From the IMG/VR virus record IMGVR_UViG_3300028591_003923, positions 65,515-129,514 of that record: a stretch of 64,000 nt of DNA; one strand, given 5' to 3'. Shown here in pieces: positions 24,960 through 42,349 of the stretch (its first letter is position 1; the number at the start of each line of letters is the position of its first letter). This DNA is from a virus (lineage: Duplodnaviria; Caudoviricetes). Under the pieces are notes generated by a model, which did no database searches, was not told the origin of the DNA, and saw only the letters and a program-made list of their open reading frames with translations. A program made the position numbers and the translations under genes.

Positions 24960-25170
24960 CGTCCCATACTCCTCCGAGCACCTTAGTTACTTTTACAACC
25001 CAGGCCTCGTCTATAATCTCGCCTTTAGCTTTCTTTGTTTTATACGTATAGCCGCTTGCGCCAAGTACGTATCCATTGTCCATAGCATCCTGACGGTAAT
25101 GCTCAATCAGCGCAATGGCCTGTTCTTCACTATCTGTACGATATTCTTCAGTTTGTTTTAGAATCTTCAT
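24952..25170 (-). CDS. Hypothetical protein
   Basis: 72 aa, overlaps both neighbours, AGGAG RBS. Confidence 0.6.
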   Translation of the reverse strand: MKILKQTEEYRTDSEEQAIALIEHYRQDAMDNGYVLGASGYTYKTKKAKGEIIDEAWVVKVTKVLGGVWDDE

Positions 25171-26014
25171 TGTTTTCTCCTGTAAAATAAATTAATTCAT
25201 AAGCATAAGGTAATGTTTTTATCCAATCGCAAAAGTCATGCCACTCTTGCAATTTATGGTCTTTTCTTTGGAAATACATGTTACGTAAATTTGCATATGA
25301 CATTGTTACTGTACGTGTTTGAAGCCAAGCTTCAGGTAACGTCTGTACAAGTGCGCGCCAGTAACGTTTATCATTTGTTTCAAGATATTTATCACGTAAA
25401 TTGTTACAAATTGTTAGTATATCATCTATACAATCTTCAAAAGTAAGTTCCCAATCGCCATCTATTGAGTGTCCTTCTGTAACTATTATATCTGTATTAT
25501 CAAATGCGAACATGTCTTTAGTAATTTTATTTTTGGTGAGTGTATGCATTGTAGATGTAGAATTAGCTGTTGTACCAATTTTATATGTATCAAACTCTTT
25601 CCACCAATATAGTGGCATTGTTATATCTACTGTTACAAATATCTGACGAAGGAATTTACAATGCTCTGGACCTGACTTAATCAGACGCTGCGCGAGGTTT
25701 AAATCATTTGGTCCAATAAAAGCAAACTGCTCAATACTATAGTCTTCATCAATAATTCCTTGTCCCCAAAGCCAATCCATATAGCGTTTCCACAGTTCTT
25801 CGTAGACGCCTTCACCTGGACCGCTTTCTATATTTCTGCTTTTGAGTTCTTGTTCTACCCAAATGTCTACTACATCTGCGCAACGGTCTACCATATGTTC
25901 TGCATTATCATATCCAAACAAACTGTCAGACCTATCCCATGAATTAAGTGGGTTTCTCATTCCTCTCAACGCATTTTCAAAGTTAAATACCTGTGTATAA
26001 GTAAATTTGTCCAT
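25148..26014 (-). CDS. ThyX-like (FAD-dependent thymidylate synthase fold) protein
   Basis: GPEH.KFLRQ, PLYWWKEFDTY, LP...LQTRTV and QRKDHKL.EW patterns of phage ThyX-like proteins; the canonical RHR..S motif is absent. Confidence 0.55.
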   Translation of the reverse strand: MDKFTYTQVFNFENALRGMRNPLNSWDRSDSLFGYDNAEHMVDRCADVVDIWVEQELKSRNIESGPGEGVYEELWKRYMDWLWGQGIIDEDYSIEQFAFIGPNDLNLAQRLIKSGPEHCKFLRQIFVTVDITMPLYWWKEFDTYKIGTTANSTSTMHTLTKNKITKDMFAFDNTDIIVTEGHSIDGDWELTFEDCIDDILTICNNLRDKYLETNDKRYWRALVQTLPEAWLQTRTVTMSYANLRNMYFQRKDHKLQEWHDFCDWIKTLPYAYELIYFTGENNEDSKTN

Positions 26015-26075: not shown

Positions 26076-26091
26076 ATTTTAAAACAAAAGG

Positions 26092-28224
26092 CTAGGACTC
26101 TTGCCTAGCCTTGAACATACGATAATTAAGAATAGTAAGTACTAATTGGTCTACAAAGAATATGAAGAACAATATAGTCCATTGGTCAAACCATCCCATT
26201 GGATATGAGAAGTTTGTTGTAAGGAAGAAAATTACTATTGAAAGTAAAGCCATTACAAAACTTAAAATACGATGTATGTGTTTTGTTTGATAATCACGTT
26301 GGTCTTGGTCTTTTTTACGATTGTATTTGACGATTACGAACGCTGCCATTATTATGATTAACAGAGTGAAAAGAAGGTTAAATAATGCCCATTGTCTTTT
26401 CATTCCCCTGCGCGCTGCTAATGGAGGCATGCCATCTTCAAGTTCTTCAACCTCTTCTTCTAACTTATCAACCTTTTTATTATTTTCGGTTATGTAGTTT
26501 TTAGTAACGTATCTATTAATAATTGTGGTCGGGTGCACTGTACGATTAATTACAGTTGGTTTTGTAATAATGTGTTTTGTAATTACTTTTTCATCGTAAT
26601 ATTTTTTAATGATTACTTTTGTTTTTGTATCGTCTTCTTCTTTTTCCTCAGGGTCATCTGGCGTTGGCTCAGGATCATCTGGTTTGTCAGGAATAATTTC
26701 TTTTTCTTCCCATGTAGCTTTGTAAGTTGCGTCTTTTGTTACATCTTCAATTTCTGGAGTCCAGCCAGTAAAGATATATGTATATTGAATTGTCGGCTGT
26801 CTATATGGAATCGGTGCTTTAATGTCTTCTGCGGCCGTACCATATTCGTAATCATCTTGTGACAGCTGCGTGTCATCGTAGTCTACGAACTTTACTGTGT
26901 AAATATTTGTAATTAAGTTATAAACTGCGGTATAATCTTTATTTTTTGTCGCAGGAGTAATATCAGAATCCCAACCGATGAATTTGTACGTATACTGCGC
27001 GCTGGCGTCCTTGGATGGGGTTTCACCGTCGTATTTTGGTAGCTCACCGTAAGGCACCATTTTATTAGTAGAAAGTGTATCACCGTTATCATCTAACCAA
27101 TTAATTGTGAAATATTTAGCGTATACATGAACATTCTTTTCGTCTTTTACAGGTTCTCTAACAATATATGAGTTAGGGATTGTAATTATTTCGTCTTCGT
27201 TAATTGGTATTTCCTTGCCTTCGTAAAACCATTTCAATGGTTCTGGCGCCTTGTCATAAAGATTTATATTTTCATAAGTCGTAACTGTGTCTACTTTATT
27301 TTCTCTATAGTGATAATGCACATTTAATGGTGGCTGATATTCATATACGGCTGTAAATTCTATTTCTTCATTTTCACCTACGTCTGCATATGCTTTAGTA
27401 AATGTATCACCTGCATAGTATTTATCATCACCATTTTCCCAGTAAAGAAACGTATAATGTTCTGGTATGTCTGCTGGTACTTTAAAGGTGTGTTTATATT
27501 CTACAAAAGTGTTATCATTTGACCATGAGCCACTGCCGTGTGCAACATTATCAGTATAGATTACATTTAATTTTTTAATTTTTTCAACATCATATTTTGC
27601 ATTGAAATAATAATGTGTATCTTCAGTAATATCTTTAATAGTTAATGGTAATTCATTGTCCCAACCGGTAAAAGTATAAACAAAACCATTGTGTTCAAAA
27701 TGCCTATACTTTGAAATATTATCATCAAAAGCACCTGCTTTTATAGTCCAACCTACACCAGCAGACATGTTTTGTGATATAACATCTTCAACTTCTTCCG
27801 CCTGTTGATTTAAATACCTAGTATGTACCGTTGCGATTGGAACAGGGTTATATACTGCTTCATAATATATATGTGTTTCTGCTTCGTAATCTTTATTATA
27901 AATATATACTCTTTCAGTTGAAGCTACACCATCTTGTGGTGTATCTGGCCCAACCCACCTTTTAGCAAACACATATTCTCTTCCGTTTTCGGTATATTTT
28001 TTAGGGATAGTATCGGGTATTATTTTATTTATAACTTTTGAAGCACTGTCGCTATTACTTTTAACTTGTTGTGACCAAGTCTTTTCTGCATATTCTGTTG
28101 CTGAAGTTTTATATTTGAAGTGATAAGTGACGGTAAATGGATACTCTACTTCAGCAAACACTATATTAGTTGTAGATAAAACTACCAATATAGCTAATAA
28201 TATTATAAAAATTCTATTCTTCAT
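26092..28224 (-). CDS. Secreted, C-terminally membrane-anchored surface protein with InlB B-repeat-like domains
   Basis: Signal peptide ending VFA|E; repeats Y.Y.F.GW...Y.A.(Y/W); P/D/E linker; EDGMPPLA motif; three C-terminal TM helices. Confidence 0.75.
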   Translation of the reverse strand: MKNRIFIILLAILVVLSTTNIVFAEVEYPFTVTYHFKYKTSATEYAEKTWSQQVKSNSDSASKVINKIIPDTIPKKYTENGREYVFAKRWVGPDTPQDGVASTERVYIYNKDYEAETHIYYEAVYNPVPIATVHTRYLNQQAEEVEDVISQNMSAGVGWTIKAGAFDDNISKYRHFEHNGFVYTFTGWDNELPLTIKDITEDTHYYFNAKYDVEKIKKLNVIYTDNVAHGSGSWSNDNTFVEYKHTFKVPADIPEHYTFLYWENGDDKYYAGDTFTKAYADVGENEEIEFTAVYEYQPPLNVHYHYRENKVDTVTTYENINLYDKAPEPLKWFYEGKEIPINEDEIITIPNSYIVREPVKDEKNVHVYAKYFTINWLDDNGDTLSTNKMVPYGELPKYDGETPSKDASAQYTYKFIGWDSDITPATKNKDYTAVYNLITNIYTVKFVDYDDTQLSQDDYEYGTAAEDIKAPIPYRQPTIQYTYIFTGWTPEIEDVTKDATYKATWEEKEIIPDKPDDPEPTPDDPEEKEEDDTKTKVIIKKYYDEKVITKHIITKPTVINRTVHPTTIINRYVTKNYITENNKKVDKLEEEVEELEDGMPPLAARRGMKRQWALFNLLFTLLIIIMAAFVIVKYNRKKDQDQRDYQTKHIHRILSFVMALLSIVIFFLTTNFSYPMGWFDQWTILFFIFFVDQLVLTILNYRMFKARQES

Positions 28225-28457: not shown

Positions 28458-28952
28458 TTATTTCTCCATCCATAAACCGTTTTTCTTTTCCCATATTATT
28501 TGATTAGAACTTCCACGTAGTTCAAGAGTTAAATCTTTGGCTGCTTCTACGAATGGTCCGTCAATTAATATGTCTATATCATTTAAAATTGATTGTATGT
28601 CTTTGTTCGTTTGTTGTAATAAGTCTTTCATTAAAAATCCTGTCCATAAATATATTTTAATATTTGGATAGGCGTGGCGTACGGTACTAACAACTTCTTG
28701 CGTCATCGGCAAGTTTGGTAAAGCTAGTGGCTCGCCGCCGAGTACACAGAAGTTACGTTTGACATTGTTGGCGGCAAGCAAACCTAGAATTTGCCATTTA
28801 ACGTCTGGCGTATATTCTATACCTTCATTAAAGTCCCAAGTTTCGGGGTTAAAGCATCCGGGACAACGATGTGGGCACCCCTGCACAAAGAAAGATACAC
28901 ATACCCCTTCACCGTTTGAAACGTCATTAGGAATTATTTGTGCATATCTCAT
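28458..28952 (-). CDS. nrdG: Anaerobic ribonucleotide reductase activase
   Basis: D..NGEG..VS.FVQGCPHRCPGCFN (CxxxCxxC), LGGEP, IDGPF, RGSSNQ. Confidence 0.95.
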   Translation of the reverse strand: MRYAQIIPNDVSNGEGVCVSFFVQGCPHRCPGCFNPETWDFNEGIEYTPDVKWQILGLLAANNVKRNFCVLGGEPLALPNLPMTQEVVSTVRHAYPNIKIYLWTGFLMKDLLQQTNKDIQSILNDIDILIDGPFVEAAKDLTLELRGSSNQIIWEKKNGLWMEK

Positions 28953-29535
28953 GGCTCTCCTCCTTTGTTAGTGATTCTATACACAAGGCGCCCAATGAAT
29001 TACCTACGACTACTAATATCCATTTGATGAGGTTAGCTAAATTGAAGTTAACCATAAGAAATGGAATATCTGCGATACAGTGTTCTGCACCTATTAAAAT
29101 GAATATTGCAACTGCAAGTACGGTAATCGGTACTTGTTTTATTTTTACTGCAATATGGATAAGTGCGCCACATAGGATTCCGCAGACTAGCATCTGTAGA
29201 TAAGTCTTTTCAAACTTGTGCATACTTATATTAGCCATTAATGTATGAAATGCTGGATTAGCGATTACATAACAGGCTATCGTCGTTAGCGCGCCTGCGA
29301 CGTTTGCTATCAACATTCCTGGGAAAGTAGCCGGGTCCTTCCAGAACCCGACTCTTCCTGTATATAATGGTAATTTTAACGCTATTATTGCCAGTAAACC
29401 AAAGCTAAAAAACAAAGCTCCTATTGTTGGGTTTGCAGTTATGGAATTAATAATAACTCCGAAACCGATTAACAGACCAGCCGCAAAAGCTGTTTTATAG
29501 TTTTTTACTGTGTTTAAATCTATCTTCCACTTCAT
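28927..29535 (-). CDS. Formate/nitrite transporter (FNT/FocA family) channel
   Basis: Six hydrophobic segments; AG..IG.G, FSFGL, LYTG (Omega-loop Thr), GILCG, EHCIAD (pore His), GNSLGA. Confidence 0.85.
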   Translation of the reverse strand: MKWKIDLNTVKNYKTAFAAGLLIGFGVIINSITANPTIGALFFSFGLLAIIALKLPLYTGRVGFWKDPATFPGMLIANVAGALTTIACYVIANPAFHTLMANISMHKFEKTYLQMLVCGILCGALIHIAVKIKQVPITVLAVAIFILIGAEHCIADIPFLMVNFNLANLIKWILVVVGNSLGALCIESLTKEESHEICTNNS

Positions 29536-31696
29536 GTTGTTTACCTATATTAAATGCTGTTTTATAATCTCCTGTTAAGTAACCTGTTACACGTCTAAGA
29601 CGTTGTATGTGTGTTGAACCGCACTCTGGACATTCGTTTCCAATTTCTCCAGTCCAGCCGCACTCAAGACAAGTGTCATTAGGAACATTAATAGCGAAAT
29701 ATGGAATGTCTTTATCCATCGCATATGATACTATTTGTTCTAATGCTTTAAGGTTTTTGAGTACTGCACCTTCAAGTTCAACATACGTAATACATCCTGC
29801 ACTTGAATAACCTGTAAGCTGTGATTCTATATCAATTTTATCAAACGGTGAAATCTCTTTCCAAACTGGTACGTGCATTGAGTTCGTAAAGTAATCTCTA
29901 TCACTAATGTTTGGAAGTTTTCCATAGTTGTCTTGGAATTTTTTCATCGCTGTATAACACAGGTTCTCAGCGGGTGTATAATATACTCCGAAATTTAACT
30001 TATATTCTTGTTTAAACTGCGCGCATCTGTCTTTGAATAATTGTTCAATGCGCTTAGCCAGTTCCATTCCCTTTTCTGTAGTGTGGTCACAGCCGATAAG
30101 AATTTGAAGACATTCTGCTAAACCAAGTTGACCAATTACAATTGTACCATGCTTCAAAGCAGAACGAATACCTTCTTCTGGAACATAACCAGCCATTGTA
30201 TTATTTTCATACATAAACTTTGCAGCTGATGGGTCTTGTGAGCATATATAATTGAAACGCTCAATAAGCATATCTTTTGCTTCGTGAATTTTCTCATCAA
30301 GCAAAGTCATAAAATCTTCTACATCACCAGCTTCCATTGCAAGTGTAGGAAGAATAATAGTTACTGGACATATGTTTCCGCGCCCGTCTTTGAGTTGACC
30401 TAAACCGTTTATATCGTAGCCGTTGGCTGTACGACAACCCATTGTAGAAAAATAAGTACGTGGGTCATTACGGTCATATCCTGCATTTCCTGACCAATCT
30501 ACATTTGCATAGTTTGGATAAAGTCTTTTAGCTGTTGATTCAAGCGCGAGTTGGAACAAATCATAGTTCGGATCGCCTTCTTCTCTGTTTACACCCTTCA
30601 TGCATTGGAAAATACCACAAGGGAAGATAGGTGTTTTATGAAGTTTTCCGACCCCTTTAATTGAACCTTGGAGAAGTCCTTTGATAATCATGCGGCCCTC
30701 TGGTAAGGTACATGTACCGTAATTAATTGAAGTAAATGGTAGCTGATTACCGCTACGTGATTGAAGAGTATTTAAGTTGTGATACATACCTTCAATAGCT
30801 TGATTGGCTTCGCGCTCTGTCATTTCCATTGCATAGTCATAAGCCTTATCATCACTGTATATTTTACGGTCATCAATTGATACTTCTGTTGGGTCTGCAA
30901 TATTTATTGTAATGTTGTTGTCTACAAAATCTTTTACATAACGTGAAACAAAGATAAGTCCATCTTTGTAGTGCTTGTAAAATGATTTTCTTACGTATGG
31001 AACCATTGTCCAATCAAGGTGTGATGCGCTTACTCCTCCAAACTGTTGAAGTGATTGAAGTTGGAATAATACAGCAATTAATTGGAAAGCTGTGTTAATT
31101 GAATTGGCTGGACGTACATCTGTTTGTCTTGTGTTAAATCCTTTGGCAAGTAAATCGTCAAATGGAACTGTTAAGCAGTTGTGCATACCAAGCGCATAAG
31201 AATCAAGGTCGTGGATATATATCTCATTATTGAGGTGATTATCACGAGCCATTTTACTCATAAGGTTGTCCAATGCGTACTGCTTAAAGATAACCGAATC
31301 GGCTTCACCTCTACGGCCGCCGAATGAGTATTCGTCTACGTTGGCATTTTGATTCTGAACGTCTGATGCGGCCAGTTTAATGGCTACATTGTCCATCATC
31401 TTATTGTTCCAGCTTCTTATTCTACTTCTTTCATCACGATACGTAATGTAACGTCTTGCAACGTCTTTTCTTTTAGTGGACATAAGTCCTTTTTCTACTA
31501 AGTCTTGAATTTCTTCAACAGTAAGTATAGTATCATAACTTTTTTCTTCAATAAAAGAAGCAATCTTATTCGCTTTTTCTTCTGCATAAGGCGTAACCTC
31601 GCCGTCTACATCAATAAAAGCCTTAACGATTGCCTGAATAATTTTCTTTCTGTTGAATTCTACTAAACGTCCGTCTCTTTTTTTAATGTACTGCAT
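29495..31696 (-). CDS. nrdD: Class III anaerobic ribonucleoside-triphosphate reductase
   Basis: N-terminal ATP cone (KKRDGR), YIHDLD, NC, MGCR, TPAE, Zn site CxxC..CxxC, glycyl radical motif RVTGYL. Confidence 0.96.
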   Translation of the reverse strand: MQYIKKRDGRLVEFNRKKIIQAIVKAFIDVDGEVTPYAEEKANKIASFIEEKSYDTILTVEEIQDLVEKGLMSTKRKDVARRYITYRDERSRIRSWNNKMMDNVAIKLAASDVQNQNANVDEYSFGGRRGEADSVIFKQYALDNLMSKMARDNHLNNEIYIHDLDSYALGMHNCLTVPFDDLLAKGFNTRQTDVRPANSINTAFQLIAVLFQLQSLQQFGGVSASHLDWTMVPYVRKSFYKHYKDGLIFVSRYVKDFVDNNITINIADPTEVSIDDRKIYSDDKAYDYAMEMTEREANQAIEGMYHNLNTLQSRSGNQLPFTSINYGTCTLPEGRMIIKGLLQGSIKGVGKLHKTPIFPCGIFQCMKGVNREEGDPNYDLFQLALESTAKRLYPNYANVDWSGNAGYDRNDPRTYFSTMGCRTANGYDINGLGQLKDGRGNICPVTIILPTLAMEAGDVEDFMTLLDEKIHEAKDMLIERFNYICSQDPSAAKFMYENNTMAGYVPEEGIRSALKHGTIVIGQLGLAECLQILIGCDHTTEKGMELAKRIEQLFKDRCAQFKQEYKLNFGVYYTPAENLCYTAMKKFQDNYGKLPNISDRDYFTNSMHVPVWKEISPFDKIDIESQLTGYSSAGCITYVELEGAVLKNLKALEQIVSYAMDKDIPYFAINVPNDTCLECGWTGEIGNECPECGSTHIQRLRRVTGYLTGDYKTAFNIGKQHEVEDRFKHSKKL

Positions 31697-31919: not shown

Positions 31920-33034
31920 TTTTTCTCTCCAGTATACTCATAAAATTTTTTAAACAAATCGTAGTTGTTTTCGCGTACGAATTGAAATACTTCACTGACC
32001 TGTTCTCTAGGCCAGCCTTGCTTATATATGTCGTATATGTTTACTTGGTTACGCATATATGAATAGAAACTTTCGTACGGAAGAACACGAATACGATAGT
32101 CTTTTGAACGTAATTTTTCTTTGATATAGTTTGCAAAAGTTTGAAAGTATTCCATTAATTGTAGCCATCTATAATCTACGAAAAAGTCCCTATCATATAT
32201 AAGTGGAAGATATATGTAGTGCATACGTAAATCTAAGATTAAATCAAATAGAGTAGATATATCTGTAGTAATGAATTTTTCGTAAGTTGTACCCGCAGTT
32301 ACATTAATGGTTGATTGTTCGTAAGCTGTAGAATGAAAACTTGTTTCAACAAATTCTTTTACTTCGTCTAAGGTTGGCAAACCGTTATATTGAAGTGAAT
32401 AGAATTGATTTAACGGTTGTACTTTTAACCAGGCTATATGTTCTTGTGAGTCTGTTGTGATAACTGGAAATTTCATACCTATACGGCGGCCGTTCGGATA
32501 ATTTGTGATTTCGGGAAGTAAATCTGTAATGAACTCCCGCGCGCCTTGTACGTTGCCCAGGTTATAGTCGTAACAGATTAAACCGAAGGTATTGGGTGCA
32601 TGACGCAATTGCTTTTCAAAGTCAGACCAAATTGTTTTTCCGTCTAATGATAAACGCACATGTTCTGCGCGCCGTAGAATACTGAAACTTGAACGTATAT
32701 GGTCCGGAATTTTGAATTCATAATCTACTCTATCATATAGAGACACATCTGGTGGCGTACCTTCTATATCTAATGGTAAAGGTTTATAAGCCTTTCCATC
32801 AAAGACGCGACCACCAAACGTTATCTCATTTATATCAGTTGGAATAGTGTCTAATTCGTGAGGATAATCCTGGCGAATTATAAAGTGGGAATATTTTTGT
32901 GGGGATAAAGTGGGTGATAAACTGACTATTTGTCTTTTACGTTTATAATAAGAAGAGAGTTTCATTAGTTCTAAGTTATAGAATGGGACCCGCGCATAAT
33001 ACGACAGGTCCGCATCGTATAATCCATAACTCAT
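31916..33034 (-). CDS. Degenerate radical-SAM-like phage protein lacking CxxxCxxC
   Basis: GLYDAD...NLELMKLSSYYK, GG, LP.DIE..PD.SLY resemble phage radical SAM proteins; no Fe-S Cys triad. Confidence 0.45.
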   Translation of the reverse strand: MSYGLYDADLSYYARVPFYNLELMKLSSYYKRKRQIVSLSPTLSPQKYSHFIIRQDYPHELDTIPTDINEITFGGRVFDGKAYKPLPLDIEGTPPDVSLYDRVDYEFKIPDHIRSSFSILRRAEHVRLSLDGKTIWSDFEKQLRHAPNTFGLICYDYNLGNVQGAREFITDLLPEITNYPNGRRIGMKFPVITTDSQEHIAWLKVQPLNQFYSLQYNGLPTLDEVKEFVETSFHSTAYEQSTINVTAGTTYEKFITTDISTLFDLILDLRMHYIYLPLIYDRDFFVDYRWLQLMEYFQTFANYIKEKLRSKDYRIRVLPYESFYSYMRNQVNIYDIYKQGWPREQVSEVFQFVRENNYDLFKKFYEYTGEKK

Positions 33035-36000
33035 TCTTCTATACGCTCTTGCTGAGTTTGAATATATCCATTCTCATCTACGTCGGTTATTAACTCAACC
33101 AAATGATATGGAGTATTCTTATACTTCTTACCAACAAAAGTTCCTTCTCTTCTTATACCCGTGACAATAATTTTGTTCCCACGACTAAACCAACTTTTTT
33201 CTGTGACATGTTTTTTACCATCCGCGCCACGTTCGGATAGTTGTTTATCATAATGAGTAAATGCATCACCAAAAATCTTAACTGGAACTACCGTGAAATC
33301 TGGAGTTAATATTGTTACAGTTTTCTTTCCTTTATCTTTATCTAAAACTGTTCCTATAATACGGAAAATTCTAAATAAAGGAATCTTCTGACCAGTTTGT
33401 TTTGACTGGAACTCATAACTTACTACGGGTTCATCGGATAATTGTGAATAATTTACGAATCCGTATGTTATATTACGAACCTTTGACAATTCATGCTCGT
33501 GAATATAACACGATATTGAATCCATTTCCCACTTACTTATGTTTCCTTCACAATATTTATCCCATAAGTCTTGGCGCAATTTATTATTAACGGAATTTAA
33601 TAATTCCTCATTATGGTCTTTAATAAATGGACGTATAATATCCATTTGAGATTTATATATTTTATCCCATATTAATTGTTTAATTACGAAGTTATTGTTA
33701 TTGGGTTCAAGAAAATCCACATCAAAATGCTGACTATAAAAATCAAAAGCGATTCTATCAACCTCATAATAATTACCCTTCTTAAACTTCTTTAAATATT
33801 TATTAAAGTTATAAACCTTACATTGAAAATCGTATTTGTCTGGAATAAGTCCAAAATCAATTAACATTTTCATATTCTGTAAAGTTATACGCTGTTTTTT
33901 ATCTGCTATTAAATCAATATAACCGTTCATGGCGGCCAGTCGGTCGTTGTTATAAAGTTTATCAAATGCTCCTGACTTAATCAAATTAATCATTTGAGGT
34001 TTATTAACTTTTACTTTTTCAATAAAATCTTTTATTCCACTAAACGGTCTATTATCCATTATCTCCTGGATTAAATCATCACCTATTCTCGTGATGCCGC
34101 TGAGTCCATAGATAATTAAATTATCTTCTACATCTGGCGCGAACGTATAAGATGATTTATTTATATCCGTTGCAACAATTTCAATTCCACGATTTTTCAT
34201 TTTACCAATCGCTGTTGCAATTTTACCATAGTTTGCTGTTTTATTTTTCTTTTTCTTTTTGTCTGTCTGTTCTTCTGCTTCTTCATCTTCTGTTTCTTCT
34301 TCTGAATCTGTAAATTCTTCAAATTCGTCATAACAAGTTACTTCATTTGGTTCTTCTTCATCATCTTCAATTTCTTCTGCGTTGCCGCCACTATCGGTTA
34401 TTAGACACGCACAATCCCATAAGATTATCGGATATTTAAATGCTAAATTCAATTCTTGAAGTCCAATTAATGAATAAGCCAACGTATGAGACAAGTTAAA
34501 TCCATAACCTTTACTCATCGCTATGAGAACGTTCCAGACATACGTACACAGCGCGCGGTCGCATCCACGTTTTTCTATTTCTTCAAAATATTCTTTCGTC
34601 AGTTTATCATATTCAGCTGGATTCTTTTTTGCAATTGACTTTCTCAACTTATCTGCCCATGTTAGGTTAAATCCACCTAACTCTGGTAACTGAACCAGCT
34701 GCATAAACTGTTCTTGCGTAATACACAGTCCATATGAAATGTTTACTACAGGTTCAAGAATCTTTTTCGCCTCCGCGCCAAGTCCGTACTGACGTAACTC
34801 ATTATCCCAATCTGATGGATGCTTTTTAAAACGTGCGAGCTTGTTTACTGGAATCTCTCCGCCTTTTTCTGTCGCCATAAGACGAATTGCTGAGTTAAGA
34901 ATTGCTAAGTCATCCACTGAAGTTGGTTTCATAACTGCAATTCCTTGAACTCCACTTTGTTTTTCCATTTGGAATAAACTCATTACTTCGTGATTCCAAC
35001 ACATTTCCCACATTCGTTTATCATCACGTTCCAAATTGTATATACCTACGATTTTTTCGTAAGTTTCTCTTAATGTGTTTTCCCTTTTTTCATATCCATA
35101 ATCGCAAATCAAATCAATACAATTATGAATTTTATCTAACGCTTCAATTGATAAGATATCGTATTTAATTAACCCTGTATCTTCCGCATCATGGAGGTCA
35201 AACTGAGTCATTGTTTCTCCACTTGGCGCCCGCATCAATGCTGTTGTATTTGTGAATGGTTCATCAACAAATATAACTCCGCCCGCATGAATTCCACATC
35301 CGTTAATAAGTCCCTCAATTCCTTGAGCTACTTCCCACAGTTCTGGATAATTCTCTTCCATTTCATAACGGAATTGCTTACTTGCGCTTATTCCATTATC
35401 TGGGTCACCATAGAATGTTTGTTTTAAACTTCTAAGTTGTCCTCTGTCTGCTTCAATAAATGAAGAAAGATATTGTGCTGTATCAACATCTATTCCTAAA
35501 CCTCTTGCTGCTGTAAGAATTGCCGACTTAGATTTTTCTGTTTTCAACGTCAATACATTCGCAACCCTATCTGTTCCATAAATATTACGGAAGTTTTTCA
35601 ATACTGCGGCCCTACGGTCGCCTTCTATATCTATATCTACATCAAGAACCGATACACGTTCTGGATTCAAGAATCTCCATCTAAATGTTGGAGCCTTTTC
35701 TTTTAATGGATTAATCTGCGTTATACCTAAAATGTAAAGTAGAATAAAACCTACACCGGAACCTCTTCCCGCTCCAACTAAAGTTCCTGCATCCCAACAC
35801 GCATCTATTATATTTTGAAGATTTAAGAAATATGCGCTCCATCTACTTCCATTTACCTCACTACTAACCCATGTATCTTCAAGACACGCATTGATTTCAT
35901 TTAATGTACGTTCATCCTGAAGTTCGGGGTCGCGCCTTAAACGGTCAATAATTGCATAAATCAAATGTCTATCTTCTGAATATTCAGAATCAAGAAACTT

Positions 36001-37008
36001 ATTTACATATGGAATTTTACTTCTCCAATATGTCTTTTCTTCTTCTGAAATGTCATATAACTTCCAATTCAGTCTTGGAATTTTTAACGGTTTCATTAAC
36101 GAATAATCTTCACATTTATCTTTTATTTCTAAAATTGTCTGATAAGCTGACTGAAGAACTTCTTCACCCATTTCTTCTTCCATAAAGCTACGAATTTCTT
36201 CATCACTCATAAGATAAGTTGTTGCATAGAAATCATCTACTTCTCTATCACCTTGCTGTGAATTGAGAAACGCCTTATGAATTGGTCTATCTTCTTTTTT
36301 CTGATAATGAGCATCATTCGTTATAATGTACTTAATTCCGTACTTTGCGCCCAGCTCAACCAATTTATGATTCACATATATCTGGTCTTTGTTTTTTGAT
36401 GGTTGCATTTCAAAATAGAAATCGTTCTTACCAAATATCTGTTGCATCTGTAATATCCAACGCTCAATTAAATCCATTGAAGGCGCGCCAGTGTCTCTAT
36501 TACGAATGAGCTGAGTCGGAAGGCATCCACCAAGACATGCTGTTGAACCAATTACATGACCTGGATTTTTACCTATTATATCAATTAAATCTTGATAATA
36601 AGTTGGAACTCGCCGCATACGACGTGCGACATAACTTCTCATCCATGCACGAGTTGATATTTCACGAATTTGTCTGTGTCCCTCGGCGTCTTTCGCCAAG
36701 AGAATGAAATGGAAATATCTGTCCACATCTTTATTAAAGTTATCTGAATTAAGTCCATTCCTTACTAAATAAATCTCATTACCGAGAATTAATTTAAAGT
36801 TTGGATTATCCTTTTTTATTTTGTTATAATATTTTTCTGCTCTAATCGCGCTCGCTATTGTATCATGTTCAGTAATCGCTACTAATTCATGACCAAGTTC
36901 TAGTGCATAATCAATAAGTCCTTCTACTGTATTTATTGCATCTCTAAGACGAAAATTTGAGAAGTCAGTGTGATTATGTAATGAGCCTGGGTATTGTAAT
37001 TTATCCAT
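33031..37008 (-). CDS. dnaE: DNA polymerase III alpha subunit (family C)
   Basis: PHP domain (LHNHTDFS, AITEH, TNDAHY), GRGSG, RFLNPER..DVDID, HAGGV, KYD.L, YGFN.SH. Confidence 0.95.
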   Translation of the reverse strand: MDKLQYPGSLHNHTDFSNFRLRDAINTVEGLIDYALELGHELVAITEHDTIASAIRAEKYYNKIKKDNPNFKLILGNEIYLVRNGLNSDNFNKDVDRYFHFILLAKDAEGHRQIREISTRAWMRSYVARRMRRVPTYYQDLIDIIGKNPGHVIGSTACLGGCLPTQLIRNRDTGAPSMDLIERWILQMQQIFGKNDFYFEMQPSKNKDQIYVNHKLVELGAKYGIKYIITNDAHYQKKEDRPIHKAFLNSQQGDREVDDFYATTYLMSDEEIRSFMEEEMGEEVLQSAYQTILEIKDKCEDYSLMKPLKIPRLNWKLYDISEEEKTYWRSKIPYVNKFLDSEYSEDRHLIYAIIDRLRRDPELQDERTLNEINACLEDTWVSSEVNGSRWSAYFLNLQNIIDACWDAGTLVGAGRGSGVGFILLYILGITQINPLKEKAPTFRWRFLNPERVSVLDVDIDIEGDRRAAVLKNFRNIYGTDRVANVLTLKTEKSKSAILTAARGLGIDVDTAQYLSSFIEADRGQLRSLKQTFYGDPDNGISASKQFRYEMEENYPELWEVAQGIEGLINGCGIHAGGVIFVDEPFTNTTALMRAPSGETMTQFDLHDAEDTGLIKYDILSIEALDKIHNCIDLICDYGYEKRENTLRETYEKIVGIYNLERDDKRMWEMCWNHEVMSLFQMEKQSGVQGIAVMKPTSVDDLAILNSAIRLMATEKGGEIPVNKLARFKKHPSDWDNELRQYGLGAEAKKILEPVVNISYGLCITQEQFMQLVQLPELGGFNLTWADKLRKSIAKKNPAEYDKLTKEYFEEIEKRGCDRALCTYVWNVLIAMSKGYGFNLSHTLAYSLIGLQELNLAFKYPIILWDCACLITDSGGNAEEIEDDEEEPNEVTCYDEFEEFTDSEEETEDEEAEEQTDKKKKKNKTANYGKIATAIGKMKNRGIEIVATDINKSSYTFAPDVEDNLIIYGLSGITRIGDDLIQEIMDNRPFSGIKDFIEKVKVNKPQMINLIKSGAFDKLYNNDRLAAMNGYIDLIADKKQRITLQNMKMLIDFGLIPDKYDFQCKVYNFNKYLKKFKKGNYYEVDRIAFDFYSQHFDVDFLEPNNNNFVIKQLIWDKIYKSQMDIIRPFIKDHNEELLNSVNNKLRQDLWDKYCEGNISKWEMDSISCYIHEHELSKVRNITYGFVNYSQLSDEPVVSYEFQSKQTGQKIPLFRIFRIIGTVLDKDKGKKTVTILTPDFTVVPVKIFGDAFTHYDKQLSERGADGKKHVTEKSWFSRGNKIIVTGIRREGTFVGKKYKNTPYHLVELITDVDENGYIQTQQERIEE

Positions 37009-37041: not shown

Positions 37042-37070
37042 ATTATAGCAGAATTTTATTAAAATGTCAA
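37042..37070 (-). promoter_or_regulatory. SigmaA-type promoter for dnaE operon
   Basis: TTGACA-17-TATAAT with extended TG, followed by ATACATAGAAAA. Confidence 0.85.
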
Positions 37071-40261: not shown

Positions 40262-41828
40262 TTACTACTCCATCATTCAAATCTTGTAATGTAATTTGCA
40301 TTTCTAAATCTTGTTTATCGTCCCAATTCTGAATCTTATATTCTTCTCTTTCAAAGAAATCATGTACTGGCTGCAAGTCCGCATCAGTTACAAATAAGTC
40401 ATGCTTCTTCAATGTTCCTAAATTCATATTTGACCAAATTCTAATCTGCGTCCATTGACCATTTCTAACTTTAAATATATCTGTAACTAAATTCGGTTTA
40501 TCATCTGGATTATTATGATACATTGGTTCCAATATATCTAATTCCTCTTTTGTTGGTCGTGCCATAATTGAACCGTTATCAGCTTTATTAATTGTACTAC
40601 GACCTCCAGCTAATACACCTTCATTTCTAATTGTTTTATTATCGTCTCCTTTTGCATTAACCTGAGTTGAAGTAAACATCGCTACATCTAATTCAACCGC
40701 CAAATCTTTTAATGCTGTTGCGAACATAAGTAATACTTCATCGTTTCTTAAAGTAAATCCATTAAACTCATTCAATAAAGCTGGTCCAATGAATATATAA
40801 TCGTAAAATACATAATGCACATCTTTCGTAATACACTGCTCGCGCACTATAGTTTTAACAAGTTCAATAGTCGGATTCGGTACTTTAACTAATGTCATAT
40901 TATCTTCATACCGTTTCATAATACCTATAGCTTGTTGAATTACTGACTTTTCTCTATCACTAAAATCATTATATTTAAACCTACTTTCATTTATATCTGT
41001 TAAGTAAGCTAAAATCATTTTTCTAACTTCTTCAAACTGTTGCTCTGTGACTATAAACAATACATGCTCACAGTTACCCTCCTGCTCCCACATACAAGTT
41101 GTACTATTATACCTATATGGATAAGCTAAATAACATGCATCGGCTACTGCATTTCTCGTTTTACCTACACTTGATGCCGCTGACCTAATCGTTAACGTAC
41201 CCCTTCGCGCGCCGTCTATAACTTGATTATAAAACTCACCTTGTACTGGTAAACCAATTGACCCAGCCGTACCAAAATGAGCGATTAAATCTTCCATACC
41301 CTCAACGGCGCTTTCGCTTTCAACTTCATCGGTTACTGCATATTTGTTTTCTAATCCAAGCAACTTCTTTCTAATTCGGTCAGTTATATCTCTTAATTCC
41401 AACCAATCAAAGTTTCTATTAATTTCTTCTGACTTCGGATTAGTTAAATCTTCACAATAAAATTCCGATGTATCTATTCCACTTTTCTGTAAGTCTTTTA
41501 ATAAGTTTAATTTCTTTAATCTTGTATAATAGAATGTAAAGTTTTCAACTTCACTCAGTTCTATTATATCTTGTATATATTCAATCCCATTATTTTCTTT
41601 AAAAACCGTCTTCGCTACTGGGTCAGTTTCTAAATAGTTCTCTATATCAATAGGTTGAATACGTGTTGCACCCTTATCATATAAACCAGATATTGCTAAG
41701 AAAATTGAACGTTCAAACCTACTTGGAAAATCTGTAATTACCAGATTATACTTATCAACTTCACTTAAATATTGAGGATGTTTAATAAGGCTGCCGAGTA
41801 CTTGTTGTATACACCTTTTATCTACCAC
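40254..41828 (-). CDS. dnaB: Replicative DnaB-like helicase
   Basis: Walker A SVGKT, VTEQ, FYDYI, LK.LA.ELD...STQVN, KAD, FKVRNG. Confidence 0.88.
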   Translation of the reverse strand: MVDKRCIQQVLGSLIKHPQYLSEVDKYNLVITDFPSRFERSIFLAISGLYDKGATRIQPIDIENYLETDPVAKTVFKENNGIEYIQDIIELSEVENFTFYYTRLKKLNLLKDLQKSGIDTSEFYCEDLTNPKSEEINRNFDWLELRDITDRIRKKLLGLENKYAVTDEVESESAVEGMEDLIAHFGTAGSIGLPVQGEFYNQVIDGARRGTLTIRSAASSVGKTRNAVADACYLAYPYRYNSTTCMWEQEGNCEHVLFIVTEQQFEEVRKMILAYLTDINESRFKYNDFSDREKSVIQQAIGIMKRYEDNMTLVKVPNPTIELVKTIVREQCITKDVHYVFYDYIFIGPALLNEFNGFTLRNDEVLLMFATALKDLAVELDVAMFTSTQVNAKGDDNKTIRNEGVLAGGRSTINKADNGSIMARPTKEELDILEPMYHNNPDDKPNLVTDIFKVRNGQWTQIRIWSNMNLGTLKKHDLFVTDADLQPVHDFFEREEYKIQNWDDKQDLEMQITLQDLNDGVVID

Positions 41829-42349
41829 TCTTCATCCTCCATTTCTCCTAATACACTTAGGTCTACTTCCTTTTTCTTTTTCTTTGGTTGTGGCGCGAGT
41901 ACCTTTTTAACCTCTCTTTGATGAGCTTCTAACATTTGTTGTTCTATTTCTGCTATTGCGCCCTTTTGCTCTTGTTCTCTGCGCGCCCAGTATCTACAAG
42001 AATCTTCATATATATATGGTACTATACCAACGCCGCCATGACCTTTAGACCAATCGCCATGACATACTTCATAAAAATATTTTAACGCAAAAAAGACACC
42101 TTTAAGTGTCATGCCATTTTTTACAAATTTATTCAGTTGTGCTTCACACTTCCAATAACTATATTCAAAGTGCATATCTCTTTTTATAAAGTCATAAATT
42201 AAATCTCTATACTCTTCATCATCAGTTGGGTTTGATTTTTTCCATTCGTAGTAACAATCTCTGTGATAGTAATAATTGTTTACTGGTTTAATCCAATCGT
42301 CTTTGTCTAAGTTTAAAAGTAATCCACAGACCCTACAATGTTGTGCCAT
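41822..42349 (-). CDS. Hypothetical Zn-binding protein, possible helicase loader/initiator
   Basis: CxxC...H..C; GIVPY motif; directly upstream of dnaB. Confidence 0.5.
   Translation of the reverse strand: MAQHCRVCGLLLNLDKDDWIKPVNNYYYHRDCYYEWKKSNPTDDEEYRDLIYDFIKRDMHFEYSYWKCEAQLNKFVKNGMTLKGVFFALKYFYEVCHGDWSKGHGGVGIVPYIYEDSCRYWARREQEQKGAIAEIEQQMLEAHQREVKKVLAPQPKKKKKEVDLSVLGEMEDEEW

Follow-up and report, generated by a model that had tools for sequence, protein, structure and literature searches.

The window analyzed in this study, a 64,000-nt stretch of DNA, comes from a phage of gut or rumen and makes up the latter half of its virus record, which is 129,514 bp long (IMGVR_UViG_3300028591_003923; CheckV: 100% complete). 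It harbors a cassette for class III ribonucleotide reductase (RNR), in which a small formate/nitrite transporter (FNT) family gene is placed between nrdD, encoding the anaerobic reductase, and nrdG, encoding its activase (Table 1). The product of the small gene is referred to as mini-FNT. An initial annotation, made from the letters of the DNA, had located this gene inside the RNR operon, and the coordinates of the open reading frames (ORFs) agree exactly with that description: the gene overlaps the 3' end of nrdD by 41 nt and the 5' end of nrdG by 26 nt. Its start codon is backed by the N-terminus MKxKxDxNxV, which is conserved across homologues, and a strong Shine-Dalgarno sequence precedes the start codon of nrdG (ATG, position 28952) by 6 nt. 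The layout indicates that the FNT gene is probably translationally coupled with both nrdD and nrdG.

Proteins of the FNT family form homopentamers and conduct monovalent anions or weak acids. The 202-aa protein matched the Pfam profile PF01226 (Form_Nir_trans) with 52.9 bits (cut-off 34.6, E = 4.3e-14) over profile positions 13-233 of 240, and this match was reproduced in a profile scan of the whole genome. No family matching the protein was found in PHROGs. An AlphaFold2 (AF2) model built on 22 homologues (pLDDT 82, pTM 0.77) comprised six membrane-spanning helices, interrupted at the Omega and S loops, in agreement with the aquaporin-like fold of the family and its broken TM2 and TM5. When this model was compared with the PDB by Foldseek, the best 47 listed matches were all FNT channels (FocA, HSC and NirC), including FocA of V. 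cholerae, E. coli and Salmonella, HSC of C. difficile and NirC of Salmonella (probability 1.0, template modelling score 0.7-0.75). Membership in the FNT family, as proposed in the initial annotation, is thus upheld. The protein is not an orthologue of FocA, as it scored 32.9 bits for TIGR04060 (cut-off 290.1), falls into a separate clade of short forms and is devoid of the N-terminal helix.

The residues of the pore were mapped on E. coli FocA from an alignment of 99 sequences, 44 of them RNR-linked copies from phages. The residues of the central constriction (F75, F202, H209 and A212 in FocA; F43, F145, H152 and A155 in the window), the closed slit (L79, L89 and T91; L47, L57 and T59), the vestibule lysine (K156; K107) and the residues E208 and N262 (FocA numbering) are each kept in 43-44 of the 44 RNR-linked copies, with L57, T59 and H152 being invariant in all of them. 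The threonine of LYTG and the histidine of EHCIAD, which the initial annotation had singled out, correspond to T91 in the ELFT and H209 in the EHSIAN motif of FocA. The structures of FocA from E. coli, Salmonella and V. cholerae (PDB 3KCU, 3KLY, 3Q7K, 9G49) show the same fold and the same constriction, slit, lysine, glutamate and asparagine. It was described that His209 and Thr91 of FocA are needed for bidirectional translocation, that an H209N variant is efflux-only and that K156 attracts formate (PMC9380403, PMC12559229, PMC8914244). Since the H209N exchange leaves FocA efflux-only, this residue permits uptake, and the strictly conserved histidine of the mini-FNTs is compatible with import.

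Several exchanges relative to FocA extend over the whole subfamily, namely N172 to Gly, N213 to Asp, V175 to Ile, D88 to Pro and S210 to Cys. The position of N172, which belongs to the open-state slit, is Gly123 in the window and is Gly in 44 of 44 linked phage copies. The window protein hence shares the central constriction and the vestibule lysine with the anion-conducting subfamilies defined by Mukherjee 2017 (FocA, FdhC, NirC and HSC) but deviates from them at this position. In FocA, K156 and N172 were reported to be essential for translocation and N213 and N262 to be structural (Kammel and Sawers, PMC9380403). The combination of Gly172 with Ile or Met at position 175 was found in uncharacterised YfdC subfamilies only (Mukherjee 2017, PMC5525234) and is shared by the window protein, so that membership in YfdC was considered. 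It was rejected, because YfdC has a Y/I/H/V central constriction, a slit of the type FLFG(I/M), a phenylalanine at position 79, no vestibule lysine and a long N-terminus, whereas the window protein has F/F/H/A (including the equivalents of F202 and A212), a leucine at position 79 and the equivalent of K156, and is separate from YfdC in the tree. With the FFHA constriction, the slit and the lysine kept but Gly172 and Ile175 present, the pore is FocA-like at both constrictions and carries one YfdC-like turn in the transmembrane helix TM4. Four further residues, H127, K131, K133 and K171, are invariant in the main phage clade and absent from bacterial mini-FNTs; they were rejected as novelties of the whole family and are specific to that clade.

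FocA (285 aa) is considerably longer than the mini-FNT. In the AF2 model no structure is formed by residues 1-11 and TM1 begins near residue 13, leaving ~12 residues ahead of TM1 compared with ~30 in FocA, and at least the first 22 residues of FocA remain unmatched in the alignment. The initial annotation was hence correct in noting that the long N-terminus of FocA is missing. This ~30-residue stretch forms the amphipathic helix of FocA that binds pyruvate formate-lyase (PflB) and acts as a gate, and its loss suggests that the mini-FNT pore might not be controlled by PflB, a possibility also raised in the initial annotation. In addition, the mini-FNT is shorter than FocA by ~11 residues around TM2b and by ~26 residues in the periplasmic TM5b-TM6 loop. 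A comparison with the 94%-identical copy in the related phage locus L002 gave a dN/dS of 0.25 for the FNT gene, 0.11 for nrdG and 0.056 for nrdD. The FNT gene is under purifying selection.

NrdD of the window was recognized by the Pfam profiles NRDD (503.9 bits), ATP-cone (75.4 bits) and Gly_radical (38 bits) and by TIGR02487 (500 bits, cut-off 326), and it contains the glycyl-radical motif RVTGY. NrdG matched TIGR02491 with 148.3 bits (cut-off 126.1) and Fer4_12 with 136.7 bits; its cluster motif CPHRCPGC (C26-x3-C30-x2-C33) is of the radical S-adenosylmethionine (radical-SAM) CxxxCxxC type. Among NrdD proteins with a known structure, the enzyme of P. copri (8p23, 410 bits) was the nearest, followed by those of S. 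thermophilus (308 bits) and phage T4 (266 bits), while the thioredoxin-type enzyme of T. maritima (NrdD2) reached 45 bits. At the site of the third cysteine the window NrdD has an asparagine (GRGN, aligned with ARGN of P. copri). The NrdDs of P. copri and S. thermophilus require formate experimentally, and in P. copri Asn435 replaces the third cysteine (PMC11226230, PMC9176816). By its motifs and nearest kinship the window NrdD is of the formate-requiring type (NrdD1), in line with the initial annotation, which had read its MGCR loop in this way. A co-occurrence of FNT genes with MGCR-type NrdD, suggested as a check in the initial annotation, cannot discriminate, as TMGCRT is universal among 77 related phage NrdDs (77/77; RVTGY in 76/77), including those of phages devoid of FNT. 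In the phage genome no PFL-like enzyme was detected and NrdD was the sole glycyl-radical enzyme found. Both NrdD and NrdG are ordinary members of their families when compared with the formate-dependent (NrdD1) nrdDG operons of T4, E. coli, P. copri and S. thermophilus (ATP-cone, TMGCRT, asparagine and RVTGY).

Table 1. Position of the RNR cassette, its motifs and the surrounding features in the window.
Feature	Position	Strand	Basis
nrdD, class III (anaerobic) ribonucleoside-triphosphate reductase, 733 aa, N-terminal ATP-cone and C-terminal glycyl-radical domain	29495-31696	-	Pfam, TIGR02487
MGCR codons, thiyl-radical loop (FSTMGCRTAN)	30431-30442	-	translation; aligned with P. copri NrdD ATMGCRT
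mini-FNT, formate/nitrite-transporter-family channel gene, 202 aa	28927-29535	-	PF01226, AF2, Foldseek
Omega-loop motif PLYTG, residues 56-60 (L57 = FocA L89, T59 = FocA T91)	29356-29370	-	profile alignment to FocA structures
S-loop motif GAEHCIAD, residues 149-156 (E151 = E208, H152 = H209, A155 = A212, D156 replaces N213)	29068-29091	-	alignment to FocA
nrdG, radical-SAM activase of NrdD, 164 aa	28458-28952	-	TIGR02491, Fer4_12
Shine-Dalgarno AAGGAGG of nrdG, inside last FNT codons (K-E-E)	28959-28965	-	sequence read
DNA polymerase III alpha-like replicase (dnaE-like), first gene of the putative unit	33031-37008	-	Pfam DNA_pol3_alpha 182 bits and PHP, finger, HHH_6
Predicted sigma-70-type promoter TTGACA-17-TGnTATAAT, 12/12, upstream of the dnaE-like gene	37042-37070	-	consensus match only
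Predicted intrinsic-terminator-like hairpin, 9-bp stem and T run, after orf710	26088-26112	-	pattern match only
Second promoter-like site, 11/12, past the hairpin	26075-26047	-	pattern match

The position of the gene relative to nrdD and nrdG was followed in 61 IMG/VR loci that had been retrieved via the FNT protein alone. The FNT gene directly adjoins nrdD and/or nrdG in ~50 of these 61 viral loci, mostly in the order nrdD-FNT-nrdG; others have the order nrdD-nrdG-FNT, one locus has FNT-nrdD-nrdG and one is divergent. As the adjacency recurs to this extent, the placement is not due to chance, and the non-random location near nrdD put forward in the initial annotation is borne out. Phylogenetic analyses relied on 'quick' or FastTree searches and contained some long branches; the root of the FNT tree was placed on YfdC, which is a very long branch, and the tree is interpreted as unrooted only. 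In this tree the RNR-linked FNTs form at least four lineages that are interleaved with bacterial homologues. Forcing them into one clade was 65 log-likelihood units worse (approximately unbiased test, p = 0.0125). A single origin of the RNR-linked FNTs is rejected, and the linkage to nrdD/nrdG in phages is recurrent and apparently arose repeatedly. Among 29 bacterial mini-FNT loci none had nrdD or nrdG within 1.5 kb and no conserved neighbour gene was found, so that their context gives no functional hint. In five searched records the FNT gene lies away from nrdD; three of these encode NrdD elsewhere, one is a fragment and one is a complete phage. The phage FNTs without RNR linkage adjoin a deoxynucleoside kinase, an intein-bearing ATPase, a transposase or a methylase, and no alternative partner enzyme emerged from these neighbourhoods.

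The same dnaE-nrdD-FNT-nrdG block, with NrdD being 74-78% identical, was also encountered on a 129,983-bp contig (G001 contig C11; L062/L076/L080), similar in length to the genome of the phage, that is binned in a Clostridia metagenome-assembled genome (MAG) from sheep rumen. This is probably a phage contig and not a bacterial locus.

In a 90%-clustered database 358 homologues of the mini-FNT were found, all of ~170-206 aa, and an exhaustive profile search yielded 1,286 clusters at 50% identity (E <= 1e-10), of which the best 150 were nearly all 180-240 aa long. In the ESM Atlas, the clusters closest to the protein carry a viral label. BFVD contained one 191-aa 'Formate/nitrite transporter' of a gut siphovirus and INPHARED one distant match only, on an unannotated human faecal fragment without nrdD or nrdG in its 4.6 kb. 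The maximum-likelihood tree unites the short forms of phages and bacteria in a single clade (SH-aLRT 100, branch length 1.72) and separates it from FocA, FocB and NirC of E. coli and from 12 canonical Clostridia FNTs. The Clostridia members of this clade (~200-215 aa, uncharacterised) have the same short architecture and the pore signature LL(Y/F)G(I/M) with FFHA and the lysine; they are ~27-34% identical to the window protein and differ from it in their lack of nrdD/nrdG linkage. Of 399 Clostridia genomes sampled, a mini-FNT was present in 45, a canonical FNT in ~81 and both in none (hypergeometric P = 1.8e-5, ignoring phylogenetic non-independence and MAG incompleteness), which fits either a replacement of the long form by the short one or a lineage-specific distribution. 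PflB was encoded in 16 of the 45 genomes with a mini-FNT, in ~36 of the 81 with a canonical FNT and in ~190 of the 275 without FNT; as PflB is scarcer with the canonical FNT too, the difference (Fisher p = 5e-4) is not specific to mini-FNTs and nothing was drawn from it.

Taken together, these results suggest that the mini-FNT probably serves as a formate supply channel for the class III RNR. It would form a minimal pore that conducts formate or formic acid across the host membrane and would be co-transcribed with the formate-type NrdD and its activase NrdG. During an anaerobic infection such a pore could equilibrate or import formate from outside the cell, where the contents of rumen and gut provide it, and NrdD might thereby be supplied with the stoichiometric reductant (formate to CO2) for the synthesis of deoxynucleoside triphosphates (dNTPs). 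This proposal is supported by the repeated linkage to NrdD, the only formate-consuming enzyme of the phage, while formate as the substrate, a net inward flux and a benefit to phage replication are what we infer. A parallel exists in FocA, the gene of which is likewise located beside a glycyl-radical enzyme and its activase (focA-pflB, with pflA downstream). As stated in the initial annotation, focA of E. coli is located beside pflB and not beside nrdD, and the two partners act in opposite directions, PflB producing formate and NrdD consuming it. The observation made in the initial annotation was thus confirmed, and its interpretation as a formate channel for the RNR was partly supported.

Several observations weigh against a formate supply channel. 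The residues of the pore do not single out formate, because the FFHA and LLT constrictions also occur in the nitrite channels NirC-beta and the hydrosulfide channels HSC (Mukherjee 2017, PMC5525234). N172, reported as essential in FocA, is a glycine as in YfdC, and N213 is an aspartate; around TM2b the protein is shortened and the model is poor (pLDDT < 50 for residues 62-65). Furthermore, the mini-FNTs form a long-branch clade of their own, made up of uncharacterised members. The FNT gene is also dispensable: in a converse survey, which covered the 80 viral loci ranking highest in NrdD similarity (68-85% identity) with flanks of ~5 kb, it was present in 16 and missing within the flanks in 64, most of which have nrdD directly followed by nrdG, and in five relatives of 93-100% estimated completeness no FNT was found anywhere in the genome. 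Conversely, the complete phage among the records mentioned above (L048, G409; 77,744 bp with inverted terminal repeats) encodes a 221-aa mini-FNT, adjoining its deoxynucleoside kinase gene, and has NrdD nowhere in its genome. Finally, the nrdD/nrdG junction may be a general insertion spot, since a homing endonuclease also lands there.

The constrictions shared with NirC-beta and HSC and the separate long-branch clade would fit a pore that carries another solute (nitrite, hydrosulfide, acetate or lactate, bicarbonate or CO2, or ammonia, as proposed for YfdC) for a purpose other than the supply of reductant, for example the adjustment of pH or proton-motive force or the removal of a toxic anion. 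A cyanophage FNT has indeed been interpreted as a nitrite transporter (PMC8115048). However, the operon encodes nothing that would use nitrite, sulfide or ammonia, the enzyme to which the gene is repeatedly linked is the sole formate consumer of the phage, and the mini-FNT retains the vestibule lysine and the equivalents of L79, F202 and A212, unlike YfdC. Transport of a different solute is therefore regarded as unlikely.

The patchy distribution could also be explained if the mini-FNT were a mobile moron at an insertion-tolerant nrdD/nrdG junction, with any benefit being unrelated to RNR. On a tree of 77 NrdD sequences the distribution of FNT implies a minimum of 14 gains or losses, of which 11 are unavoidable given the well-supported branches. 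In the nearest relatives L001-L003 (NrdD 98% identical) a free-standing GIY-YIG/NUMOD homing endonuclease of 227 aa (L002:2667-3350) is located exactly between nrdD and FNT, and here the FNT gene starts three codons later (MIDLNTV) and the overlap with nrdD is lost. The phage FNTs that are distant from nrdD, and the complete phage with FNT and without NrdD, fit such a scenario as well. An insertion hot-spot alone nevertheless leaves unexplained why the same family was inserted from several FNT lineages, in differing orders and with translational overlaps, and why ~50 of 61 phage copies but none of the 29 bacterial copies are RNR-adjacent; the purifying selection on the gene further argues against it. 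We consider this explanation quite unlikely. The patchy presence combined with the frequent RNR-adjacent positions marks the FNT gene as an accessory that is mobile and optional and strongly prefers a location in the RNR operon.

That the mini-FNT is primarily a scaffold, tethering or regulating NrdD (or NrdG) at the membrane or interfering with FocA/PflB of the host while conduction is secondary, is very unlikely: FocA does bind the glycyl-radical enzyme PflB, which controls translocation (PMC12559229), the phage order nrdD-FNT-nrdG parallels focA-pflB-pflA of E. coli, and the short N-terminus MKxKxDxNxV and a cysteine-containing C-terminal tail (NEIC) are conserved, specifically in the closest clade, but the PflB-contacting helix of FocA is absent and the strict conservation of all conduction residues would be needless for a pure scaffold.

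Full-text literature searches yielded no paper connecting FNTs of phages or bacteria with nrdD or describing a channel gene in an nrdDG operon, in accordance with the initial annotation, according to which the module is not known to have been described. The nearest precedent is the focA-nirA nitrite module of cyanophages (Gazitua et al. 2021, PMC8115048), in which a viral FNT is likewise located beside an enzyme using the transported anion and was read as an auxiliary metabolic gene. That protein is a canonical FNT of the cyanobacterial type without any link to RNR and was ascribed a role in taking up nitrite for NirA in oxygen-minimum zones of the sea, whereas the RNR-linked mini-FNT is a virus-encoded FNT auxiliary gene of an uncharacterised FNT subfamily. 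If the proposed formate supply is correct, it would be an unusual auxiliary metabolic gene, as it encodes a membrane channel for the co-substrate of the phage's own enzyme and not another enzyme. It would further imply that the supply of formate as reductant can limit dNTP synthesis in anaerobic infection, and that phage replication in rumen and gut is tied to the formate pool of the community, which is shared with methanogens and acetogens. A more far-reaching possibility is that the mini-FNTs are a distinct, uptake-oriented subfamily captured by phages several times as a membrane-coupled feed of reductant, maybe docked on NrdD in the manner of FocA and PflB and passing external formate to the active site. 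This extension is doubtful at present; if true, phages that synthesize DNA anaerobically in gut and rumen would be limited by external formate. As a natural minimal FNT of ~190-200 aa without N-terminal gate and with Gly and Asp at two positions that are regarded as essential or structural in FocA, the protein is useful for defining what the FNT core needs for conduction, and the gain and loss of the gene among closely related phages offers natural controls.

The cassette is embedded in a long putative replication operon, which likely comprises dnaE-orf372-orf66-nrdD-FNT-nrdG-orf80-orf710 and is bracketed by the predicted promoter upstream of the dnaE-like gene and the predicted terminator after orf710. 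Between these two sites only weak hairpin matches of 5-8 pairs and no other terminator-like hairpin were detected.

Irregular nrdD and FNT genes were observed in related phages. In many of them the tblastn matches of nrdD span 3.1-4.3 kb, 1-2 kb over the length of the gene (L018, L031, L015, L022, L026, L030, L032-L034, L040, L042, L056 and L061). They suggest inteins, introns or endonuclease insertions; matches to Thomasclavelia phages list an HNH endonuclease within nrdD. In a 240-kb phage (G410, the record of L060) the NrdD match at 40342-42255 holds seven in-frame TAG codons, and in several relatives (FNT fragments in L015, L016, L021, L022 and L035) the FNT frame is open only from approximately residue 66 under translation table 11. 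Both observations suggest stop-codon recoding in part of the phage group.

The last gene of the putative operon, located just ahead of the terminator, encodes a 710-aa protein (26092-28224, minus strand) for which no significant Pfam match was obtained. This protein carries a signal peptide as well as repeat units, a stalk of acidic/Thr-Lys type and, at its C-terminal end, membrane helices. Its gene is followed by an ORF of 288 aa (25148-26014, minus strand) without a Pfam match at E < 0.1, which has the second promoter-like site as its own and is kept beside the cassette in relatives with 51-97% identity.

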